A program made the position numbers and the translations under genes. Under the pieces are notes generated by a model. It saw only the letters and a list, made by a program, of their open reading frames with translations, did not search any database and was not told where the DNA came from. Below, in pieces: positions 1,207 through 16,054 of a stretch of DNA of 64,000 nt (position 1 is its first letter; every line of letters begins with the position of its first letter). Source of the stretch: Pirellulales bacterium (GTDB lineage Bacteria; Planctomycetota; Planctomycetia; Pirellulales; PNKZ01); assembly GCA_036272935.1 (NCBI GenBank), contig DATAXP010000075.1, positions 20,511 through 84,510 of the forward strand, in the 5' to 3' direction.

Positions 1207-3027
1207 TCATTTACCTGGCAGAATCCACACCTTGGACGCGCGTATTTCGCCGGGGTTGTCGCCCGGAGCGCACTCCCCGCAACGGGCCAGCAGCAGATGC
1301 GTTGGACCGTCGCTGGGATGATGCACGAGACTTGCCGTGAGCATCTCGGCAGCCACGGCGTTCTGACCCGCGTCGAACAGTGCGAGCGCCTGCTCGTACT
1401 CGTCGCGCAAGCGATCCCATGATTCGCCTGGTTCGCACAATTCGAACAGCTCGACAGGCTCGGCAATGTTCACGACGCGCACACTTCCCAAGCGTCGCGT
1501 GGCAAACGAGGCGGGCAACTGGGCGCGCGTGGCCGCCGTGATGAGCAGGTCGATCTTCAAATACTTGGTCGCCCCTTCGACCCGGCTGGCCAGATTGACC
1601 GTCGGCCCCAGCGGACCGTATTTGAATTTGCGCGCCGTGCCGACATTGCCGACCCGAGCGGTCCCCGTGTTGATGCCAATGCCCACGTGCATCGGCTCGC
1701 CGAGCACCCCGGCCCAGCGCTCGTTGACCGCGGGGAGGGCTTTGAGCATCGCCAGCGCCGCGGAACAGGCGCGCTGGGCATCGTTGGAGTGCGACACCGG
1801 CGCGCCCCACATCGCGATCAGCTCGTCGCCGATGTAGTCGACCAACACGCCTTCATGCTCGACGACGCAATCGCTCAGCGCGCTCATCGTGTCGGAAATC
1901 CATTCGACCGTGCGGGCGGAGCCGAGCACTTCGCTCAGCCGGCTGAACCCGCGGATGTCGCAGAACAGGATCGTCACCTGGGCGTCGCGCCCTTCGAGCA
2001 GCCCGGGGTCGACGGCCAAGGAACGTGAAAGCTCGGGCGTGAAGAACTGCTCGAAGCGAATCTGGGCGGCCAACAGCGCCTGCTCTTCCTTGAGCCGCGC
2101 GATCCCTGCCGCCACGCCGCACGCCAGTGTTTCGACCAGTTGGGCCTCGAGCGGCGAGATTTCCACCGTGTCGCTGATGTTCGTGCTGCGGCGGTCGCCG
2201 TAGAGCACGCCAAGCACTTCGCCCGAGCGATCGAGAATCGGCGCCGCAACCACCGCTTGCAGGCCGAGCATGCTGGCCGTGATGTCGCGCGAAGGCACCT
2301 GCCACATCGTCCGTCGCTGAAAGAAAACCTCGCCGAGGATTTTGCGGCTGGGACGCCAATCGACTGCCGGTTCAAATCCGCTTCGGGCAAATCGGCCGGC
2401 GTGCTGGGCAGCGGTCGTCCACGAGCCGCCCTGGCGGAGCATCACGGCACCGGCATCGAGGTGCACCAGTTCGACGACGCCTCGCGCCGCGTGCTCAAAG
2501 AAATCGTTCGAGCTGATCGCGCTGCCCAACAGCGCCGTCACTGCCTGGAACCAGGCGAGTAACTCCGACGGTCCATGGGGCGCCTGCGGCAATGGACCCA
2601 GGCTGGTGGCGCGGATCGCCGGGGCGACGGTGGCCGAGGGCAATGCATTGAGTTCCGCGGCGCTGACCGACGAAGGGTCAGCCGCCTCGACGCGAATCAG
2701 GTACTCGCCATGGACGATGCACGCCGGCAGGTGCAGACGCGCCGCCGCTTCGCCTTGCACCAGGCCGCCATCTTCCAGCCGCACCGCCACGCTGCGGTGC
2801 AGGTTGCGCAGCTCGACGCCTTGTGGCGTCGGCACCAGGCGCAGGAACGATCGCGGCATCGAACGATCATCGACCGGCGCGATGGCCAGGCGGTCGCCAT
2901 CGGTGACGTGTTGCAGTTCGAGCAGCGGCTCGCCGTCGCGCTGCCGGCCGATTTCGAGCGGCTGCGTCAGTTCGTGCTGCCGCAGTAGTTGTCGCCCGCG
3001 GTAGATGCTGACATGACTCGCGACCAT
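1207..3027 (-). CDS. class III adenylate/guanylate cyclase with a central GAF-like region, a possible FHA-like N-terminus and a C-terminal helical/TPR-like tail
   Basis: Cyclase motifs VTILFCDIRGFSRLSE, GDELIAMWGAP, GIGINTGTARVGNVG, GPTVNLASRVEG. The upstream roughly 170 aa look GAF-like. The N-terminal roughly 110 aa are only weakly FHA-like. Confidence 0.85.
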   Translation of the reverse strand: MVASHVSIYRGRQLLRQHELTQPLEIGRQRDGEPLLELQHVTDGDRLAIAPVDDRSMPRSFLRLVPTPQGVELRNLHRSVAVRLEDGGLVQGEAAARLHLPACIVHGEYLIRVEAADPSSVSAAELNALPSATVAPAIRATSLGPLPQAPHGPSELLAWFQAVTALLGSAISSNDFFEHAARGVVELVHLDAGAVMLRQGGSWTTAAQHAGRFARSGFEPAVDWRPSRKILGEVFFQRRTMWQVPSRDITASMLGLQAVVAAPILDRSGEVLGVLYGDRRSTNISDTVEISPLEAQLVETLACGVAAGIARLKEEQALLAAQIRFEQFFTPELSRSLAVDPGLLEGRDAQVTILFCDIRGFSRLSEVLGSARTVEWISDTMSALSDCVVEHEGVLVDYIGDELIAMWGAPVSHSNDAQRACSAALAMLKALPAVNERWAGVLGEPMHVGIGINTGTARVGNVGTARKFKYGPLGPTVNLASRVEGATKYLKIDLLITAATRAQLPASFATRRLGSVRVVNIAEPVELFELCEPGESWDRLRDEYEQALALFDAGQNAVAAEMLTASLVHHPSDGPTHLLLARCGECAPGDNPGEIRASKVWILPGK

Positions 3028-3104
3028 GGCGTGCCGCCCTGGATTGACGATCGTTGCCTGGCGGTCATTGGATCACAAAGGCACGAAGGACACGAAGGCG
3101 AAGA

Positions 3105-3893
3105 TTACAACTGGCTGCCGTCGAGAATGAAATCGTTGCGCGTCGGTGTCTCGGCATGCGCCGGATTCGAGTCGAAGCGAATCTCGGGCAGTTCGTGCAC
3201 CGCCTTTTGCAAGGCCGACTCCCAGCGCATGTGGACGTCGATCAAGTCGGCGTCTTTGCTGGTGAGCTGCCGGCGGCGCGTGATCTGGAACTCGTCGGCA
3301 TAGTATTGCAGCATGTCGATGGGCGGGCCGACCGTGACGTTCGAGCGCATGGTCGAATCGATCGAGATCAGCGCGTACTTTGCCGCCTCGTTGAGCGTGG
3401 TGCGATCGTAGCGGATGCCACGATCGAGGATCGGTCGGCCGTATTTACATTCGCCGATCTGCAAGTACGGCGATTCTTCGGTGGCCGACAGTGGGTTCCC
3501 CTGCGGGTAGATCAGGTACAGATTCGGAGGCTCGCCGCGAATCTGTCCGCCGAGCAACAGGTGAATGTTGAATTTGAAGTCGTCGCGCTCCAGGTAAGAC
3601 CGGTCGATCTCGGCGACGCGATGGACCTGCTCGCCGATGACGCGCGTGGCGTCGTACATCGACTGCGCAGCCGCAAGACCTTCGCCGCGCTCAAAGTCGC
3701 GGCGTAACAGCGTCATCACCGACTGCGAAATCGACAAGCTGCCGCTGGTGAGCACGATCAGCGCTCGCTCGCCGGGCTGCACAAACGTGTAGGTCTTGCG
3801 ACAGACATTGACCTGGTCGAACCCGGCGTTGGTACGCGAGTCGGACGCCATCACCAGGCCTTCATACGTCATGATCCCCAGACAATAGGTCAT
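3105..3893 (-). CDS. Anbu-type proteasome beta-subunit homologue (Ntn hydrolase)
   Basis: Starts MTYCLGIMTYEGLVMASDSRTNAG...CRKTYTF. The Thr sits directly after Met with no propeptide, and Asp and Lys fall near the proteasome triad positions. Length is 262 aa. It neighbours ATP-grasp, alpha-E and transglutaminase genes. Confidence 0.85.
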   Translation of the reverse strand: MTYCLGIMTYEGLVMASDSRTNAGFDQVNVCRKTYTFVQPGERALIVLTSGSLSISQSVMTLLRRDFERGEGLAAAQSMYDATRVIGEQVHRVAEIDRSYLERDDFKFNIHLLLGGQIRGEPPNLYLIYPQGNPLSATEESPYLQIGECKYGRPILDRGIRYDRTTLNEAAKYALISIDSTMRSNVTVGPPIDMLQYYADEFQITRRRQLTSKDADLIDVHMRWESALQKAVHELPEIRFDSNPAHAETPTRNDFILDGSQL

Positions 3894-3998
3894 TCGTGCA
3901 AAACCTTCCCCAGCAGGTGCTAATTAGAATGTGCCGCTCGATTGCCGCCGCCACAATTCATCGTAGCAGGCGGGCAAGGCAATCACCAAATGCCAGGC

Positions 3999-4062
3999 AA
4001 GCCCAGGCCAGACCGTGATTGATGCCGAGGATGGCAGGCCATTGCCGGTCTGGCCTGGGCTT
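3999..4062. repeat. perfect 17-bp inverted repeat (AAGCCCAGGCCAGACCG / CGGTCTGGCCTGGGCTT) with a 30-nt loop, in the Anbu / transglutaminase divergent spacer
   Basis: Arms at 3999-4015 and 4046-4062 are exact reverse complements. A second 8-9 bp inverted repeat (GTGCCCAA/TTGGGCAC) lies at about 4071-4112. Confidence 0.8.
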
Positions 4063-4183
4063 TGAGGGCGTGTGCCCAACCGGCGCGCTCGATTCGCGTG
4101 TCGATTGGGCACGTGACGTGCTGCGGCGAGCATAACTCTCGCAATTTCGTCAGGCATAAATTTTGCTCATTATAGGACTTCCC

Positions 4184-5002
4184 ATGCTTATCAAGACTGG
4201 CTTCGAACTGATTTTCAACACGCCCGCGCCGACCGTGATGCTCGCAATGCTGTTCGTGCATCCCGATCGCACGCATACCCTGGCCGAGCCCGAGCGGCTG
4301 ACCACCGAACCCGAACTCCCCCGCGATGAGTTCATCGACAGCTTCGGCAATCGCGTGGCCCGGCTGGTAACCGTGGCGGGGCGGAACCGCCTGTTCAGCG
4401 AAAGCGTGGTCGAAGATCACGGCCAGCCCGATGTGATTGTCCCCAACGCACCGCAGTTGCCGATCGAACAACTGCCGGTCGACGTGCTGCCGTTCTTGTT
4501 GAGCAGCCGCTACTGCGAGGTCGACAAAATGTCGGACATCGCCTGGCAGCTCTTCGGCAACACGCCTGGCGGCTGGCCGCGCGTGAAGGCCATTTGCGAT
4601 TGGGCGCATGGGCACGTCGAATTCGGTTACAAGTATGCGCGCGTGACCAAAAGCGCCCACGACGTGTACGAAGAGCGCAAAGGCGTGTGCCGCGACTTCA
4701 CCCACCTGGCAATCACGCTTTGCCGGTGCATGAACATTCCCGCACGCTACGCAACCGGCTATCTTGGCGATATTGGCGTCCCCGTGGCGCCCGATCCCAT
4801 GGACTTCAGCGCCTGGTTCGAGGTGTATCTGGGGGACCGTTGGTACACGTTCGACGCGCGGCATAACAAGCCGCGCATCGGCAGGATTGTGATGGCACGA
4901 GGCCGCGACGCCGTCGATACGGCACTGACCACGTCGTTTGGACCGGCACAGTTGCTGTCGTTCAAGGTGTGGACCGACGAACTGGTCGGGACCACCGCCT
5001 GA
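4184..5002 (+). CDS. transglutaminase-like family protein (short paralogue)
   Basis: GVCRDFTHLAITLCRCMNIPARYATGYL core. I prefer the ATG at 4184, which has AGGA 6 nt upstream, over the TTG at 4163. The canonical HAW His position reads SAW (see findings). Confidence 0.8.
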   Translation: MLIKTGFELIFNTPAPTVMLAMLFVHPDRTHTLAEPERLTTEPELPRDEFIDSFGNRVARLVTVAGRNRLFSESVVEDHGQPDVIVPNAPQLPIEQLPVDVLPFLLSSRYCEVDKMSDIAWQLFGNTPGGWPRVKAICDWAHGHVEFGYKYARVTKSAHDVYEERKGVCRDFTHLAITLCRCMNIPARYATGYLGDIGVPVAPDPMDFSAWFEVYLGDRWYTFDARHNKPRIGRIVMARGRDAVDTALTTSFGPAQLLSFKVWTDELVGTTA

Positions 5003-5076
5003 ACCACGGCAAAAGGAGAGACCGCTGCGACCATCTATTGCTCCCGTTCATGTGCGAACCAGGTAGGGTTTGACCG

Positions 5077-6600
5077 ATGGCAACGCAGAATGCGGCCATG
5101 AGCGACGATCGAACTGCTGCGCATCCGTTCGAAGGCTACGAACTGGGGCTGGCATTCGATGAAATGTTCGAATCGACCGGCAGCCCGCGCCGGCACTATC
5201 GGCCGCTGTACCAACGGCTGCTCGGGCTAAGCGCCGACGAAATCCGCCGCCGCAAGGCGATGTCGGACCTGTCGATGTTGCAGCACGGCGTGGGCTTCAC
5301 GGTGTATCGGCAAGAGGAAGGGATCGAGCGCGTGTGGCCGATGGACCCCGTGCCGCGGATCCTGCCGGCCGAGGAATGGGCTTGGATCGAACAAGGGCTG
5401 ATTCAGCGGATCACGGCGCTCAACCTGTTTCTGCACGACATCTATCACCAGCAGTTTATCCTGCGCGATCGGGTGCTCGACGCCGGCCTGATTTACGACG
5501 GCACGTTCTTCCGCCGCGAGTTCATGGGGGCCACCGTCCCGCGCGACATCTACATCCACGTCTGCGGGAGCGACCTGATCCGCGACCGTGACGGCAGCTA
5601 CCTGGTACTCGAAGACAACTGTCGCACCCCATCGGGCGTCAGCTACATGCTGCAAAACCGGCAAGTGCTGAAGCGCGTCTTCCCGCAAATCTTCGATCAC
5701 TACAACGTCCGCGCGACCGACGATTATCCAGCGGCCCTGTTGGACGTGCTGCGCTACTTGGCCCCCGGCGGCCGCCACGATCCGACGATCGTGCTGCTCA
5801 GCCCCGGCATCTACAACTCGGCGTACTTCGAGCACACATTCCTGGCGCAGCGCATGGGGATTGAGTTGGTCGAAGGGCGCGACCTGGTGGTCGACCAGAA
5901 CCGGGTGTACATGCGCACCACCCGGGGACTGGCGCGCGTCGATGTCATTTATCGCCGCGTCGACGACGACTTCCTCGATCCGCTGACGTTCCGGGCCGAT
6001 ACTTGCCTGGGCGTGCCGGGGCTCGTGAATGCGTATCGCGCCGGCAACGTCGCCTTGGCCAACAGTATCGGGACTGGGATCGCCGATGATAAAGGCATTT
6101 ACCCGTTCGTTCCCGAGATGATCCGCTACTACCTGAAGCAGGAGCCGATCCTGCCAAATGTCGAGACGTTCCGTCCGCAGATTGCGAGCCACCGCAGCCA
6201 CGTACTGGAAAACCTCGATCGGCTGGTGGTGAAGACGGTGAACGAATCGGGAGGTTCGGGGATGCTGATCGGTCCGGCCTCGACCGCCGCCCAGCGGGAA
6301 GAATTCGCGGCGCTGATCAAGGCCCGGCCGCGCGATTTTATCGCTCAGCCGACCGTGCAGCTTTCGGTCCATCCGACATTCGTTGACGGCCGGCTCGAAG
6401 GACGGCATGTCGACCTGCGGCCATTCGTGCTCTATGGCGAGCGCGTCACCGTCATCCCTGGCGCCTTGACGCGCGTGGCGCTGCGCCGCGGCAGCCTCGT
6501 CGTGAACAGCTCGCAAGGAGGCGGCAGCAAAGATACCTGGGTGCTGGCCGACGAGCGGGCGGCCGACAGTGTTCCCGTCGTCACAATTCCCTCAACGTAA
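5077..6600 (+). CDS. circularly permuted ATP-grasp type 2 protein (COG2308-like amidoligase)
   Basis: 507 aa, with the family-typical length and N-terminus (YDEMF-like [20 protein letters not shown]) and [17 protein letters not shown]. It is followed 18 nt later by an alpha-E gene, the conserved partner. Confidence 0.8.
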
Positions 6601-6618
6601 ACATCGCACTACGGTTCC

Positions 6619-7602
6619 ATGCTAAGCCGCGTTGCCGACGCGTTGTTCTGGATGAGCCGGTATCTCGAACGGGCCGAGCACGTGGCCCGTTTGCTCGATG
6701 TCTGCTTTCATCTCGATCTCGATTTGCACGGCCTGTTGTCGGGCCGTCCCGACCTGCACTGGAACGCCCTGATGGCGATCATCCAGCCGAACCGCGTCCC
6801 CGACGAATCGTCGAACGGGCAAGAGCCGCTCGATCCCGACGCGATCAGCGAAAGCTTGATGTTCGACCTGTCGAACCACGGCAGCGTGATGTCGTGCGTC
6901 AACCGCGCGCGCTCCAATGCTCGCAGCGTTCGCGGCACGATCAACGGCGAGATGTGGAAGGAATTGAACAAGCTGTACTGGCAGCTTACGGACGAGCAGT
7001 TTTGCGCTCAGGCCCGCGAGAGCCCGTACGATTTTTGCCAGGCGGTCGAGTGCGGCAGCCACCTGGTGCAAGGCGTCTGCGACGCCACGCTCACGCACGA
7101 CGAAGGCTGGCAGTTCATCCAGCTGGGCAAGTTTCTCGAACGGGCCGACAAGACCTTACGCACGCTCGACGTGCAGCATGGCCTGCTGACCAGCATGGCC
7201 GATCCGCTGGACCTGTCGCTGACCAACCTGCTGTGGGGCGCAGTGCTGCGCAGTTGCCGAGCCTACGAAGCGTACCAGACGCGCTACGTGGGGCGCGTCG
7301 AACCGGAACACGTGATCGAGTTGCTATTGCTGCATCGCAACTTTCCGCGCTCGGTGCTGTTCAGCCTGGAGAGCGCCGCGGCGGCGCTCGAGCAGATCGA
7401 GCTGAGCATGCCAGGCCGCGACACCAGCCCCGCCGATCGGCTGCTGGGGCGCGTGCTCAGCGATCTGAAGTTCATGGAAGTCGACGACTTGATGAACCGC
7501 GACCTGCACGGCTTCCTGGGCGAAGCGCTCGAAGGCTGCGCGCGTGTCTCCCGAGCCATCCAAGAACAATATTCATTCCATTACTGGGCCGCGGCGCGCT
7601 AG
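6619..7602 (+). CDS. alpha-E domain protein (COG2307-like)
   Basis: N-terminus MLSRVADALFWMSRYLERAEHVARLLDV is the hallmark opening of alpha-E proteins. 327 aa. Confidence 0.85.
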   Translation: MLSRVADALFWMSRYLERAEHVARLLDVCFHLDLDLHGLLSGRPDLHWNALMAIIQPNRVPDESSNGQEPLDPDAISESLMFDLSNHGSVMSCVNRARSNARSVRGTINGEMWKELNKLYWQLTDEQFCAQARESPYDFCQAVECGSHLVQGVCDATLTHDEGWQFIQLGKFLERADKTLRTLDVQHGLLTSMADPLDLSLTNLLWGAVLRSCRAYEAYQTRYVGRVEPEHVIELLLLHRNFPRSVLFSLESAAAALEQIELSMPGRDTSPADRLLGRVLSDLKFMEVDDLMNRDLHGFLGEALEGCARVSRAIQEQYSFHYWAAAR

Positions 7603-7663
7603 AACCACAACCGCGAGTTCGCCACCGCACCTGCTAACAACAAGCCATGCGAGGGAACAAAGC

Positions 7664-8623
7664 ATGATCGTCGAAGTGCAACACGAAACCTGCCTCGATT
7701 ACTCCGACGCGGTCACTGAATCGTTGGCCGAGTTCCGCATGGAACCCAGCAGCGACGATTATCAAAGCCTGCGCTCGTTCAAGCTCACCGTCAGCCCGAC
7801 GACCGAAGTGTTCCACTATCAGGACGGCTTCGGCAACCGCGTGCACCACTTCAACGTCCTCTCGGCCTGCAAGCAGCTGCGTGTCGTGGCGGCCAGCGTC
7901 GTCGAAACGCACCCGCCCGACGCCCGCCTAGCCGCCAGCCAGGCGAAGTTTCCGCTCGATCTTTCATCGCTGGAAATCTCCGGGTACAGCTACCTGAGCT
8001 TGCGCGGCCCGGTGCGCCCCACGCCGCTGCTCGACTCGCTGCTGGAACGACTGCGGCCGCACGAGGGTTGCCGCGCCGGCGAGTATGTGATCGGCATCGC
8101 CGACTACATCGTCTCGAATTTCGAGTACGCGCGCGACGTGACCTTGGCCTCGTCGCCGATCGACGACCTGCTTTCGCAAGGCAAAGGAGTCTGTCAGGAC
8201 TTCACGCACCTCATGCTCGCCATCCTGCGCAGCTACGGCATTCCGGCGCGCTACGCGAGTGGCTACATCCATCGGCCGAACCAGGAATCGCAGAGCCATG
8301 CCTGGTGCGAGGTGTGGCTACCCGATGTCGGCTGGTGCGGCATCGACCCGACGAACCGCACCGAAATCAACGACCACTTCATCAAGGTGGCCGTCGGCCG
8401 CGACTTCAACGATGTGTCGCCGAACAAGGGTGTGTATCACGGCCGAGCCGAAGAGGGCATTCTGGTGCGCGTCGAGACCCGCGCGCTCGAACGGCTGCCG
8501 ACGATCTCGTGGCAGGAAAAGTTGCCGCCGTTCCACGTGCCGCTGACGCCGATCGTCCGTCATCGTCAGAACCCCTACGCGATGTTCGACGACCACTCGC
8601 AGCAACAGCAGCAACAACAATAA
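7664..8623 (+). CDS. transglutaminase family protein (Bact_transglu_N plus transglutaminase core) with a C-terminal poly-Gln tail
   Basis: MIVEVQHETCLDYSDAVTESLAEFRMEP (N-terminal domain), then GVCQDFTHL...SHAWCEVW...GIDPTN (Cys-His-Asp). The ATG at 7664 has GAGGGAA upstream; the track start at 7544 would overlap the alpha-E gene. The gene ends with seven CAR Gln codons (8600-8620) and a double TAA. Confidence 0.85.
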   Translation: MIVEVQHETCLDYSDAVTESLAEFRMEPSSDDYQSLRSFKLTVSPTTEVFHYQDGFGNRVHHFNVLSACKQLRVVAASVVETHPPDARLAASQAKFPLDLSSLEISGYSYLSLRGPVRPTPLLDSLLERLRPHEGCRAGEYVIGIADYIVSNFEYARDVTLASSPIDDLLSQGKGVCQDFTHLMLAILRSYGIPARYASGYIHRPNQESQSHAWCEVWLPDVGWCGIDPTNRTEINDHFIKVAVGRDFNDVSPNKGVYHGRAEEGILVRVETRALERLPTISWQEKLPPFHVPLTPIVRHRQNPYAMFDDHSQQQQQQQ

Positions 8624-8637
8624 TAATTTCGTAGCTT

Positions 8638-8663
8638 AACCCGCGTCGTCCCCGACGCGGGTT
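8638..8663. terminator. perfect 11-bp GC-rich stem-loop (AACCCGCGTCG-TCCC-CGACGCGGGTT) in a convergent gene gap
   Basis: Exact reverse-complement arms, 15 nt after the transglutaminase stop. GTAG lies 3 nt upstream (8631-8634). There is no U-tract on the plus strand; the minus-strand side is A/T-rich. Confidence 0.6.
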
Positions 8664-8678
8664 GTCCGGGTGGGTGAA

Positions 8679-8713
8679 CACGGCCGCGTGGACGCAGCCG
8701 CTAAGCGAAGCAG
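8679..8713. repeat. short repeat family member: GC hairpin CGGCCGCG-TGGA-CGCAGCCG followed by CTAAGCGAAGCAG
   Basis: About 33 of 36 nt are shared with 20271-20306, and the architecture matches 19929-19966. It ends 2 nt before the stop of the minus-strand kinase gene. Confidence 0.75.
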
Positions 8714-8714
8714 T

Positions 8715-11168
<2,454 letters not shown>

Positions 11169-14178: not shown

Positions 14179-15087
14179 ATGAAACACTACATCAGCTCGA
14201 AGTACCGTCGGGGCTTTTGGTCGCAATCTCTCGCGCTGGTCATTGCACTGGCCGCTAGCACGGTCAGGGCCGACGATCCATCGGCCGTGACGAACCGCAC
14301 TACGGTGCCGCGCTCGGCGCTCCGCGTCCGGCCGCCACAGGCCGCGCCCATTGCGACGATCTCCGATGATAACCCAGGCAACTCGATAGCGACCGCACCG
14401 GAGGCGCCTCTGCCAGCGAGTGGAGGAGCAACCGTATCCGACGCCGACGAGCCGCGCATTGCTTCAGAACGTTCAACAGCTTCCGCCGATGCCGCCACCC
14501 GCGCACGACCATTGGCGTCGCGCATCGCCACCAGCGGCAATTCGTCGAGAGCCAACCGGCTGGTGTTCACGACGAGCGATTCGCCCCGTCCCAACGAATC
14601 CGGAGACGGCTGGTCGCCGGCAGCCTCGGCAAAAGCGACGTCGACAAAACGGCCCGCCGGGTGGATGACGAGAGGGCAACCGGAAGAACCCACGATCTCG
14701 CCCCCCGCACGCCGTTCGAGCGTGAACAACTCCGGCATGGCCGAAGTTCCGCGCATCGTGCTGCAATCGGCCGACGATGAACAGCCTCGCAAGTCGGCTG
14801 CAACGATGACTCGATTTCCCGCGCCGCCCGTACCCGGCTTGCGCGCCAACCGCAAGGCGTCGCAAGTGGCGACGAGCACCCAACCCGACGCGAGCGGCGA
14901 AGCGAAACCAAAATCGAAACTATCGTCGTGGCTTCGCTTCGGTCCGTGGCACCGCACGGAAGTCCCAGGCGAGGTCGACGAAATCTCAACCGAACGCGCC
15001 GGCTCGATTTGGGGCGATGCAAACCGCGAAGCGCGCACCAGCGACGAACGCTCGAACGTCATCACGCCCCGGCCGCTGTTTCGCTAG
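14179..15087 (+). CDS. secreted Ser/Ala/Pro/Arg-rich, probably disordered, hypothetical protein
   Basis: The internal ATG at 14179 gives MKHYISSKYRRGFWSQSLALVIALAASTVRADD, which is signal-peptide-like. An equally long antisense ORF (14187-15065) exists, so strand choice rests on the signal peptide only. Confidence 0.5.
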   Translation: MKHYISSKYRRGFWSQSLALVIALAASTVRADDPSAVTNRTTVPRSALRVRPPQAAPIATISDDNPGNSIATAPEAPLPASGGATVSDADEPRIASERSTASADAATRARPLASRIATSGNSSRANRLVFTTSDSPRPNESGDGWSPAASAKATSTKRPAGWMTRGQPEEPTISPPARRSSVNNSGMAEVPRIVLQSADDEQPRKSAATMTRFPAPPVPGLRANRKASQVATSTQPDASGEAKPKSKLSSWLRFGPWHRTEVPGEVDEISTERAGSIWGDANREARTSDERSNVITPRPLFR

Positions 15088-15184
15088 GCGAAAATGCTGG
15101 TCTATCCTCGTCGAGGCTGGCGGCGCGCCGAAAACACGCGGCGTAAGTCATTGTTTTCCAAGGCGCTCCGCCAATTTGTCGCGA

Positions 15185-15212
15185 TTGATTATTGCGAATA
15201 GCGTCCTATATT
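15185..15212 (+). promoter_or_regulatory. sigma70-like promoter candidate TTGATT-16 nt-TATATT
   Basis: TTGATT at 15185-15190 and TATATT at 15207-15212, in an AT-rich patch. The predicted transcription start coincides with the ATG at 15219. Confidence 0.35.
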
Positions 15213-15218
15213 TTGGTT

Positions 15219-15356
15219 ATGAGACATTACAGTTCATCCATGCGATTCCGCGGTCCCTCGACGCTGGTCAAGGGTTGGCGCAGTTTGCTCGCTTGGTCGT
15301 GGGCAATCGTCGCCATGGGGCTACTCGTCCTGTCGATGGCGGTCATGCTCGGCTGA
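15219..15356 (+). CDS. candidate 45-aa small membrane protein (possibly leaderless)
   Basis: Own translation MRHYSSSMRFRGPSTLVKGWRSLLAWSWAIVAMGLLVLSMAVMLG. It is below the ORF-track length cutoff. It has a single hydrophobic helix and the promoter-like hexamers lie directly upstream. Confidence 0.35.
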   Translation: MRHYSSSMRFRGPSTLVKGWRSLLAWSWAIVAMGLLVLSMAVMLG

Positions 15357-15393
15357 CGCAACAGGCGTTGTTCGAGTGCCGGGCGCGGGCCCA

Positions 15394-15960
15394 TCATTCG
15401 AATTTCGACTTGTGCTCCGTGCGCAGCTTTTCAGCCTGTTGCGTCAAGGCTTCCGACTCGTTGCTGAGCGCGACGATGTTCGCGACCACCGGCTTCATCT
15501 GCGTGTCCAGCGCTTGAGCGTCGGCAATCGATTCGTCGAGCAGCATTAGAACCAGCTTGCGAAGCTCATCTTTCGATTCAGCGAGTTTCTGAGTCGATTG
15601 CACTTTTAGCTTCCAATACTCGACCACCTCCGAGTCGACGTCTTCCTTGCCGGCCTCATCGAACTTGGCGATCGTGATCCGGTACTGCTCGGCGGTTTTG
15701 TGAAACAAGTCGGCCGTCTCTTCGACCGTAGGCTTGAGCTTCGCGCGGTTGGCAGGAAACTCTCGCAGACTCGCCTCGCTGAACAGCTCGGTGTGTTTCG
15801 CGACAGCCTGCTTATTGAAGTCGTTGCCGACTTCCATCGCCGCGTTTCCTTCATGCACCAATCGATTGGCTACACGATTCTCGTAATAGCGATACAGCGA
15901 TGCTGCGCCGACAACAATTGCTACACACGCAATCACAATGCGCATCACTTTGTTGCCCAT
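15394..15960 (-). CDS. membrane-anchored helical/coiled-coil hypothetical protein
   Basis: N-terminal helix MRIVIACVAIVVGAASLY, then a charged helical sequence. GC content and codon usage are visibly lower than in the flanks. Confidence 0.7.
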   Translation of the reverse strand: MGNKVMRIVIACVAIVVGAASLYRYYENRVANRLVHEGNAAMEVGNDFNKQAVAKHTELFSEASLREFPANRAKLKPTVEETADLFHKTAEQYRITIAKFDEAGKEDVDSEVVEYWKLKVQSTQKLAESKDELRKLVLMLLDESIADAQALDTQMKPVVANIVALSNESEALTQQAEKLRTEHKSKFE

Positions 15961-16054
15961 GGTGTCTCCCCTTTTTTGTGTGAATCTGCCCGCTCAACTG
16001 CCTCGAGTTCATGGTACTTGGTGCCGGTGCGGCAAGCTACGAGGCGCTCGTGCG

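Follow-up and report, generated by a model that had tools for sequence, protein, structure and literature searches.

In a 64-kb stretch of a Pirellulales metagenome-assembled genome (MAG), hereafter the window, we analyzed a locus that encodes Anbu, a proteasome-like N-terminal nucleophile (Ntn) hydrolase, together with four genes that face it across a divergent spacer of 290 bp (3894-4183). These four genes form an operon on the + strand, headed by a short transglutaminase-like protein (sTG) and continuing with a circularly permuted (CP) ATP-grasp amidoligase, an Alpha-E protein, and a classical operon transglutaminase (lTG), with same-strand gaps of 74, 18, and 61 bp (Table 1). The set of ATP-grasp, Alpha-E, transglutaminase, and Anbu has been known since 2008-2009, in a conserved order and on one strand (Valas & Bourne 2008; Iyer et al. 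2009; PMC5666114; PMC6376114; PMC3235984). The window locus is a genuine Anbu locus of this system, known by name, in a recurrent variant layout. As to its origin, a protein of 100% identity is present, annotated as hypothetical, in a 'Pirellulales bacterium' MAG. An initial annotation of the DNA had described the five genes, their spacings, and an inverted repeat in the spacer, and all of these were found where it had placed them in the open reading frame (ORF) table and the sequence. The profile families it predicted were likewise all returned by Pfam: Proteasome (5e-5) for Anbu and, along the operon, Transglut_core, CP_ATPgrasp_2, Alpha-E, and Transglut_core with Bact_transglu_N. Two gene starts were set within longer ORFs. 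For sTG (ORF 4163-5002, + strand) we took the ATG at 4184 (MLIKTGFE), which is conserved among orthologues; for lTG (ORF 7544-8623, + strand) we took the ATG at 7664, since the Bact_transglu_N match to the long ORF starts at residue 44 and the alignment with the R. solanacearum orthologue at residue 5.

Table 1. Genes and sequence features of the Anbu locus (window positions)
Feature	Position	Strand	Description	Source or match
Anbu (proteasome-like Ntn hydrolase)	3105-3893	-	262 aa, N-terminus MTYCLGIMTYEG	ORF table, PDB sequence search
Perfect 17-bp inverted repeat	3999-4015 / 4046-4062		arms AAGCCCAGGCCAGACCG / CGGTCTGGCCTGGGCTT, 30 nt between	sequence scan
Imperfect second inverted repeat	4072-4112		17-nt arms, 82% complementary, 7-nt loop	
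Distal sigma-54-type -24/-12 motif	4107-4122	+	GGGCACGTGACGTGCT; 61 nt 5' of sTG start codon	score 13.5/15
Proximal sigma-54-type motif	4152-4167	+	AGGCATAAATTTTGCT; 16 nt 5' of sTG start codon	score 12.5/15
sTG, short transglutaminase-like protein	4184-5002	+	272 aa	Pfam Transglut_core 1.2e-20; 3ISR 1.3e-41
CP ATP-grasp amidoligase, COG2308 type	5077-6600	+	507 aa	CP_ATPgrasp_2 3.2e-162
Alpha-E protein, COG2307 type	6619-7602	+	327 aa, N-terminus MLSRVADALFWMSRYLERAEH	Pfam Alpha-E 1.5e-88
lTG, classical operon transglutaminase	7664-8623	+	319 aa	Transglut_core 1e-23 and Bact_transglu_N 1e-19
lTG oligo-glutamine tail	8600-8620	+	SQQQQQQQ-stop	C-terminus of lTG

Identity of Anbu and of the ligase pair

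When searched against PDB sequences, the Anbu protein returned the five solved Anbu chains as its top matches, with E-values of 5.6e-66 to 3.6e-56 over residues 1-240 (5loy, 5.6e-66; 5lox, 2.5e-58; 5nyj, 5nyw, and 5nyf, about 1e-56). The best non-Anbu match was a 20S beta subunit at 3.3e-3, and the NCBIfam archaeal beta model gave 30 bits vs a cutoff of 224. The earlier assignment of the protein to Anbu, and not to HslV or 20S beta, was thereby upheld. No in-frame start codon is possible upstream of MTYCLG and the alignment to the solved chains begins at Thr, in agreement with the earlier reading that Thr directly follows the initiator Met with no propeptide. In the alignment of the Anbu clade, conservation of this Thr (T2 when Met is counted) is 90% or more. 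D18 and K33 (Asp17 and Lys32), invariant in 14 clade members, align with ASDSRTNAG and FRK of Pa-Anbu, so the Asp and Lys that had been noted do occupy the proteasome catalytic positions, and they vary little or not at all within the clade. The roles of Asp17 and Lys32(33) at the catalytic positions of Anbu follow published work (PMC6376114). By its sequence, the window Anbu is a propeptide-less Thr1 Ntn hydrolase.

Fuchs et al. 2017 distinguished two S1 pockets, the amphiphilic Anbu-1 type (T20/F30/T48/L52/S55) and the basic Anbu-2 type (I20/A29/R46/R50/T53), and placed planctomycete Anbu in Anbu-2 (PMC5666114). At odds with that placement, the pocket of the window Anbu reads T20/C30/T48/L52/S55, which is identical to Anbu-1 at four of five positions and contains no Arg; Cys30 is at least 90% conserved within the clade. 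As judged from these aligned residues, the window protein belongs to Anbu-1 but carries Cys in place of F30. Beyond the part that aligns to the solved structures, Anbu ends in a clade-specific C-terminal tail of ∼22 aa (3105-3170), which could be a docking element. A short tail motif, (N/T)DF(I/V)(L/K), is common to the window Anbu and its close relatives P0003, P0006, P0010, P0042, and P0032.

The ATP-grasp protein covers positions 1-374 of the 374 in the CP_ATPgrasp_2 profile (COG2308 / PF14403). It matches PDB entry 3N6X at 9e-163, a structure deposited as 'putative glutathionylspermidine synthase'. The ATP-grasp of Y. bercovieri releases inorganic phosphate from ATP (PMC6376114). Similarly, the Alpha-E protein matches PF04168 over positions 1-293 of 294 and carries the ER motif in MSRYLERAEH, of which E17 and R18 are invariant in 28 homologues. 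No solved relative of Alpha-E was found among PDB sequences, and an AlphaFold2 model built with the 28 homologues is all-helical at low confidence (predicted local distance difference test, pLDDT, 61). For four of the five proteins NCBIfam holds no specific model, and none of the five matched the PADLOC anti-phage defence models.

Pairing of sTG and Anbu across related loci

To compare the layout with that of relatives, we placed the five window proteins by tblastn on 80 related loci, the best 80 of at least 582 from a genome-collection scan with the Anbu alignment; 77 of them were assessable for sTG adjacency. In 38 of the 77, sTG lies directly upstream of Anbu and is read from the other strand, with spacers of 53-450 bp. 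The arrangement occurs in Acidobacteriota (9/9), Isosphaeraceae-type genera (6/8), Tepidisphaerales (10/21), Pirellulales (2/2), Armatimonadota (3/11), and a Rokubacteria-labelled MAG (1/1), and in none of four Gemmataceae. Cultivable relatives that carry the pair include Singulisphaera acidiphila DSM 18658 (L050), Tautonia sociabilis (L010), and Tundrisphaera (L030 and L039). The reverse look-up gave the same picture, as Anbu lies divergently upstream of four out of four sTG homologues, one of them from an Anaerolineae (Chloroflexota) MAG. The trio of ATP-grasp, Alpha-E, and transglutaminase is present within 10 kb of Anbu in about 39 of 80 loci. Taken with the sTG counts, this bears out the expectation that the neighboring genes are co-conserved with Anbu.

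The position of the trio varies considerably among the 38 loci that pair sTG with Anbu. It follows sTG as in the window in 10, lies on the Anbu strand in 13, where sTG is inverted between lTG and Anbu, is found downstream in 1, and is absent from the available flanks in 14, eight of which have the full 10 kb on both sides. In another ∼27 loci, some with short flanks, Anbu has neither sTG nor the trio in the available flanks. Of the 80 related loci, only 3 show the canonical order of ATP-grasp, Alpha-E, transglutaminase, and Anbu. Flanking genes beyond the locus are not conserved among relatives, and our search for other conserved neighbors returned only lineage-specific housekeeping synteny, for instance a peptide-chain release factor-like gene identified by sequence reading. 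Mantel mirror-tree correlations of Anbu were 0.75 with sTG (36 loci; 0.89 in a 21-locus subset) and 0.93 with ATP-grasp; since all of these are high, the test does not discriminate among the partners. Because sTG adjacency recurs, the trio is variable or absent, and the flanking genes are not conserved, the gene maps identify sTG plus Anbu, and not Anbu plus the ligase, as the stable unit in this clade. The divergent placement of Anbu highlighted in the initial annotation stands, whereas the partner conserved with Anbu is the short transglutaminase and not the ligase pair.

That annotation had also described two transglutaminase paralogues bracketing the ligases. Both are present but they are not equivalent. 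lTG aligns over its full length with the R. solanacearum operon transglutaminase (1e-37), and in this alignment its Cys-His-Asp triad is intact (GVCQDF, SHAWCEV, and IDPTN). From this alignment, lTG is the orthologue of the classical Anbu-operon transglutaminase. In contrast, the match of sTG to the same protein is weak (5e-9, 93 residues), and sTG and lTG share 28% identity. The nearest structure to sTG, aligned over residues 8-259, is 3ISR, a structural-genomics entry from Cytophaga hutchinsonii ('transglutaminase-like enzyme, putative cysteine protease') with a two-domain build like that of sTG. 3ISR has the canonical His (DFHAC), whereas sTG has Ser209 at that position (DFSAW), followed by DARHN, and keeps Cys169 and Asp224. 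Ser occupies the His position in all 34 orthologues and in 116 of the 120 closest database homologues. Across 39 diverse full-length members of the family, the position is Ser in 16, His in 11, Ala in 8, Cys in 2, and another residue in 2; Asp is retained in 39/39 and Cys in 34/39. Going by these motifs, sTG is a member of a distinct transglutaminase-like family in which the canonical His has been lost, and its membership in the fold is solid. We also considered a catalytic His relocated to DARHN. This was ruled out, as many of 150 diverse representatives have neither His and some have both; the combinations of residue at the His position and motif included Ala with DPRNN (13), Ala with DARNN (11), and Ser with DARNN (6).

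Homologues of sTG with 55-59% identity also occur on alphaproteobacterial plasmids (L083-L085), where they are His-less (DFSAW or DYNAW) and not accompanied by Anbu. Given these copies, the sTG family in its full breadth is not tied to Anbu. Two of the three form a tandem with a canonical Cys-His-Asp Bact_transglu_N transglutaminase that immediately precedes them, which suggests that the pair of an active and a degenerate transglutaminase is a recurring unit.

The classical Anbu operon of Proteobacteria and Cyanobacteria (e.g. P. aeruginosa PA1733, Y. bercovieri, and R. solanacearum), whose canonical order we confirmed in R. solanacearum and Limimaricola, shares with the window the same four protein families, Thr1/Asp17/Lys32, an Anbu-1-type pocket, and the transglutaminase orthologous to lTG. 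Control by sigma-54 and nitrogen limitation is likely common to both. In the window, by contrast, Anbu is read from the other strand and has a promoter region to itself, the operon starts with a fifth gene, the His-less sTG, which is the one that stays beside Anbu, and S1 residue 30 is Cys instead of Phe. An Anbu-less cluster in B. cenocepacia (I35_5080-83) has the same core of ligase, Alpha-E, and transglutaminase, NtrC and sigma-54 dependence, and two transglutaminase-like proteins; however, it contains no Ntn hydrolase, and its second transglutaminase is large and not of the 272-aa His-less type. The divergent sTG/Anbu layout thus appears to be a previously undescribed, phylogenetically recurrent variant of a known locus. 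No description of the sTG/Anbu pair, or of the glutamine tail of lTG presented below, was found in the literature searched, which did not cover Iyer et al. 2009.

The divergent spacer and the lTG C-terminus

We scanned the spacers for the sigma-54 consensus TGGCACG-N4-TTGCW at fixed spacing, with GG and GC required and a threshold of at least 13 of 15. In the sTG/Anbu spacers (n = 36), nine motifs at or above 13 were oriented in the sTG direction vs 0.53 expected, a number reached in 0 of 500 shuffles, and none were oriented in the Anbu direction. This trend was the same in the 300 bp upstream of Anbu at 78 loci, where no motif pointed towards Anbu and 11 pointed away. The density of sigma-54-type motifs there was 1.16 per kb, 16 times the background of 0.074 per kb over all loci. 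Where sTG is missing and ATP-grasp faces Anbu (L006 and L059), a sigma-54-type motif stands before ATP-grasp. In the window itself, the distal motif exceeds the threshold; the proximal one falls below it and takes its support from its alignment, column for column, with stronger motifs in L001 (AGGCACGAAGTTTGCT) and L002 (TGGCACACGGTTTGCC). A sigma-70 consensus scan of the locus returned no sites, and terminator-like sites at the locus were not above expectation. From the motif counts and their orientation, we infer that a sigma-54 promoter drives the four-gene unit and that Anbu is expressed from a separate promoter of another type.

The ATP-grasp/Alpha-E/transglutaminase cluster of B. cenocepacia is sigma-54/NtrC-dependent (PMC5491218), the Anbu operon of P. 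putida is the most induced under nitrogen limitation (PMC3235984), and COG3484 is enriched for predicted sigma-54 promoters in Proteobacteria (PMC12316311). By analogy with NtrC/sigma-54 control in Proteobacteria, the four-gene unit of the window would be switched on under nitrogen stress. Among the other loci, that of an Acidithiobacillus caldus megaplasmid (L090; 1-2175 and 6001-6771) has Anbu ∼4 kb from ntrC/glnL, a neighborhood consistent with a link to nitrogen regulation. The same locus contains a second, weaker Anbu-like match (2368-3132) and has a large transglutaminase and a CP-ATP-grasp downstream.

The spacer also contains the perfect 17-bp inverted repeat that the initial annotation had singled out. 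The repeat is present, and as RNA it folds at -52.5 kcal/mol (z -5.5, with 0 of 200 shuffles as low), but it does not recur with the locus type: L001, the closest relative, whose Anbu is 87% identical, lacks the right arm, and a comparable repeat was found in none of 10 related spacers. It is a genome-specific, local feature that would form a strong hairpin if transcribed. Just after it comes the imperfect second hairpin (-31 kcal/mol, z -3.4), part of which coincides with the distal sigma-54-like motif; in contrast to the perfect repeat, its block TCGCGTGTCGATTGGGCA shows partial conservation in L001 and L002.

At the other end of the operon, the run of Gln that terminates lTG (Table 1) recurs in its orthologues. 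In the related loci, the last residue is Gln in 25 of 36, and 32 of 36 have at least three Gln among the last 12 residues; L087-L089 have the tail as well. As controls, a terminal Gln was found in 0/40 sTG, 3/35 ATP-grasp, and 8/78 Anbu proteins, and for Alpha-E (n = 34) Gln is outside the six commonest last residues. Upon examination of eight proteobacterial operons, six transglutaminases were found to end in Gln, namely those of Klebsiella (QQAQQQ), Aeromonas (DGQQQ), Limimaricola (VRQQQ), B. cenocepacia (AGGAQ), Caballeronia (ATADQ), and Paracoccus (EEMEQ); a terminal Gln is absent in those of R. solanacearum and Acinetobacter. The tail is not mentioned in the Y. bercovieri Anbu paper (PMC6376114). 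The aligned termini indicate that the C-terminal Gln of lTG is conserved across phyla.

The locus is bounded on one side by the gene for a GAF-domain adenylate/guanylate cyclase (1207-3027, - strand), which is transcribed in the same direction as Anbu and lies 77 bp beyond its 3' end, and on the other by the gene for a hybrid histidine kinase (8715-11168, - strand), which is convergent with lTG and encodes two receiver domains plus Hpt; neither is conserved beside Anbu in relatives. A 115-aa ORF (747-1094, - strand) with a signal peptide-like N-terminus followed by an extreme Gly/Tyr-rich low-complexity region may encode a secreted or structural protein, or be a spurious ORF in GC-rich DNA. 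At 15000-16000, GC drops to 0.56 with an AT skew of -0.19, vs ∼0.63-0.67 GC in the surrounding DNA. Motif scanning of the 64 kb found no second Anbu and no further transglutaminase or ATP-grasp, and an Rfam scan of 2900-8800 (E up to 1) gave no matches.

Proposed mechanism, alternatives, and significance

For transglutaminase-like (TGL) domains beside ATP-grasp ligases, the reversal of peptide tags has been predicted, and for inactive TGL versions peptide binding (PMC3495828). Our interpretation extends this proposal by Iyer and Aravind of active TGL peptidases vs inactive peptide-binding versions. ATP-grasp and Alpha-E would form an amide bond via an acyl-phosphate and thereby add amino acid or short peptide tags, probably of the Glu/Gln type, to a protein carboxylate. 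With its intact triad, lTG would trim or reverse these tags, and the His-less sTG would act as a binding or noncanonical module that couples tagged polypeptides to Anbu. Anbu would then hydrolyze the tagged polypeptides, and their amino acid nitrogen would be recycled. We consider tagging followed by hydrolysis, with the secure identification of the proteins counted in, to be evenly poised between right and wrong.

Known tagging systems offer partial parallels. In TTL/RimK-type tagging (tubulin polyglutamylation and the poly-Glu tails of ribosomal protein S6), an ATP-grasp ligase is joined with a predicted tag-removing hydrolase, as in the window, and the Glx-rich C-terminus of lTG, a possible acceptor, recalls the RimK/TTL acceptors. 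Active and inactive TGL versions stand side by side here, as proposed for ciliary TGL proteins (PMC3495828). The window ATP-grasp differs from TTL/RimK in being circularly permuted and in needing or accompanying Alpha-E, and the acceptor here is putative. In the Pup-proteasome system of Actinobacteria (Pup, Dop, PafA, Mpa, and 20S), too, a proteasome-family hydrolase and an ATP-dependent amide ligase are genomically linked, and lTG, which in B. cenocepacia ends in GGAQ, recalls Pup by its C-terminal Gln. In contrast to the Pup system, the window ligase has an ATP-grasp fold instead of a glutamine-synthetase-like fold, the locus has no AAA+ unfoldase, the Gln tail is on a 319-aa enzyme and not on a small disordered tag, and Anbu of known structure is an open split ring without alpha subunits. 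With Pfam and NCBIfam, the domains of a small disordered tag protein, a PafA/Dop-fold ligase, or an AAA+ unfoldase were found in none of the five proteins. The window ATP-grasp family also includes M. tuberculosis Rv2411c and Rv2567, which have been tried only as γ-aminobutyric acid (GABA)-trehalose synthetase candidates, with negative results (2026 M. tuberculosis preprint).

Several observations weigh against tagging followed by hydrolysis. Although Anbu structures have been solved, a 2021 survey still listed its function as not known (PMC8665760), and a substrate, tag, or product is established for no member of the system (PMC6376114; PMC8665760, 2021), a state of the literature that the initial annotation had described correctly. 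Purified Anbu proteins were inactive on standard proteasome substrates, and no stable complex of Anbu with its operon partners was detected in Y. bercovieri (PMC6376114). The Cys of the sTG family is nearly invariant (34/39), from which sTG may be catalytic rather than a reader. Many same-clade Anbu genes stand alone, and from this distribution Anbu can evidently work without adjacent partners. As for regulation, a single motif of this strength is not decisive for the window taken by itself, with 22 matches at or above 13 in 128 kb. Sigma-54-type motifs occur mainly in the subset of Pirellulales, Gemmatales, and related groups, and were not found in Isosphaerales or Acidobacteriota spacers. 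Finally, a motif scan of the 64-kb window for the GAFTGA signature found no sigma-54 activator/enhancer-binding protein.

In the main rival explanation, the system would scavenge or store nitrogen by metabolizing gamma-glutamyl amides that are small molecules or short peptides; ATP-grasp would make the amide, the transglutaminase-like proteins and Anbu would be amidases, and proteins would remain untagged. It draws on domain fusions within the sTG family, one to two gamma-glutamyl cyclotransferase-type domains (P0366; GGACT at 6e-30 and AIG2_2) and one to a class-II glutamine amidotransferase Ntn domain (P0410; GATase_4 at 1e-21), and on the GATase_4 gene that is convergent right after Anbu in L089 (4137-4961), L047 (10821-11594), and L003 (10865-11575). 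Together, these GGACT/AIG2 and GATase_4 links hint at gamma-glutamyl amide chemistry. The annotation of 3N6X, the closest solved ATP-grasp, as a putative glutathionylspermidine synthase points the same way, as do the place of the system in the nitrogen-limitation regulon (PMC3235984; PMC5491218) and the inactivity of Anbu on peptide substrates in vitro, given that some Ntn hydrolases are amidases or amidotransferases according to Piasecka et al. (PMC6376114). However, Anbu of known structure assembles into a large split ring whose many active sites face a cavity, and Thr1 of Pa-Anbu binds peptide-type proteasome inhibitors (PMC5666114). Moreover, the conserved Gln tail of lTG points to a protein-level substrate, and neither glutamine nor glutamate stimulated the Y. 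bercovieri ATP-grasp (PMC6376114). We regard amide metabolism as a possible but rather unlikely account of the locus.

Alternatively, Anbu could be a stand-alone general protease whose adjacency to the other genes reflects shared regulation or gene-island inheritance and not a common pathway. The 14 sTG/Anbu pairs without the trio and the ∼27 loci with neither partner would fit this view, as would the undetected complex in Y. bercovieri (PMC6376114) and the unconserved flanking genes. The sigma-54 motifs are never directed towards Anbu, meaning that it is not co-transcribed or obviously co-regulated with the operon here. Yet the linkage persists in at least four phyla with differing flanks and in three arrangements that all keep sTG beside Anbu, and the proteobacterial operon itself ends with Anbu, which makes independence of Anbu improbable in our judgment. 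Lastly, we think it very unlikely that the perfect inverted repeat is a shared operator or enhancer site co-regulating both divergent units: it is far too long and perfect for chance and lies 90-170 bp upstream of the sigma-54-like motifs, the usual distance for the enhancer-binding sites of promoters that depend on bacterial enhancer-binding proteins, but it is not conserved, its arms are 30 bp apart, which is atypical for a dimeric regulator site, and it is a single copy in the window with no Rfam family.

Under the tagging reading, we can also envisage a specific role for the lTG C-terminus as acceptor or primer of the pathway. Its Gln run would be deamidated or activated, extended or ligated by CP-ATP-grasp/Alpha-E in a Pup- or RimK-like manner, and read by the His-less sTG, and the modified proteins would be passed to Anbu, all of it switched by sigma-54 under nitrogen stress. 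We put this forward as a long shot; if true, bacteria would have a third tag-and-degrade pathway of independent evolutionary origin.

Few proteasome relatives have, like Anbu, solved structures and yet no known substrate, partner, or role, a question that has stood since 2008. The window locus leaves the role itself unanswered, but its comparison with about 90 related loci narrows the search. It presents sTG, which remains beside Anbu when all else moves, as a candidate partner of Anbu, the C-terminal Gln of lTG as a candidate protein-level substrate or primer of the ligase, and sigma-54 control under nitrogen stress as a suggested condition for activity. If tagging is true, the locus would encode a new bacterial protein-modification pathway.

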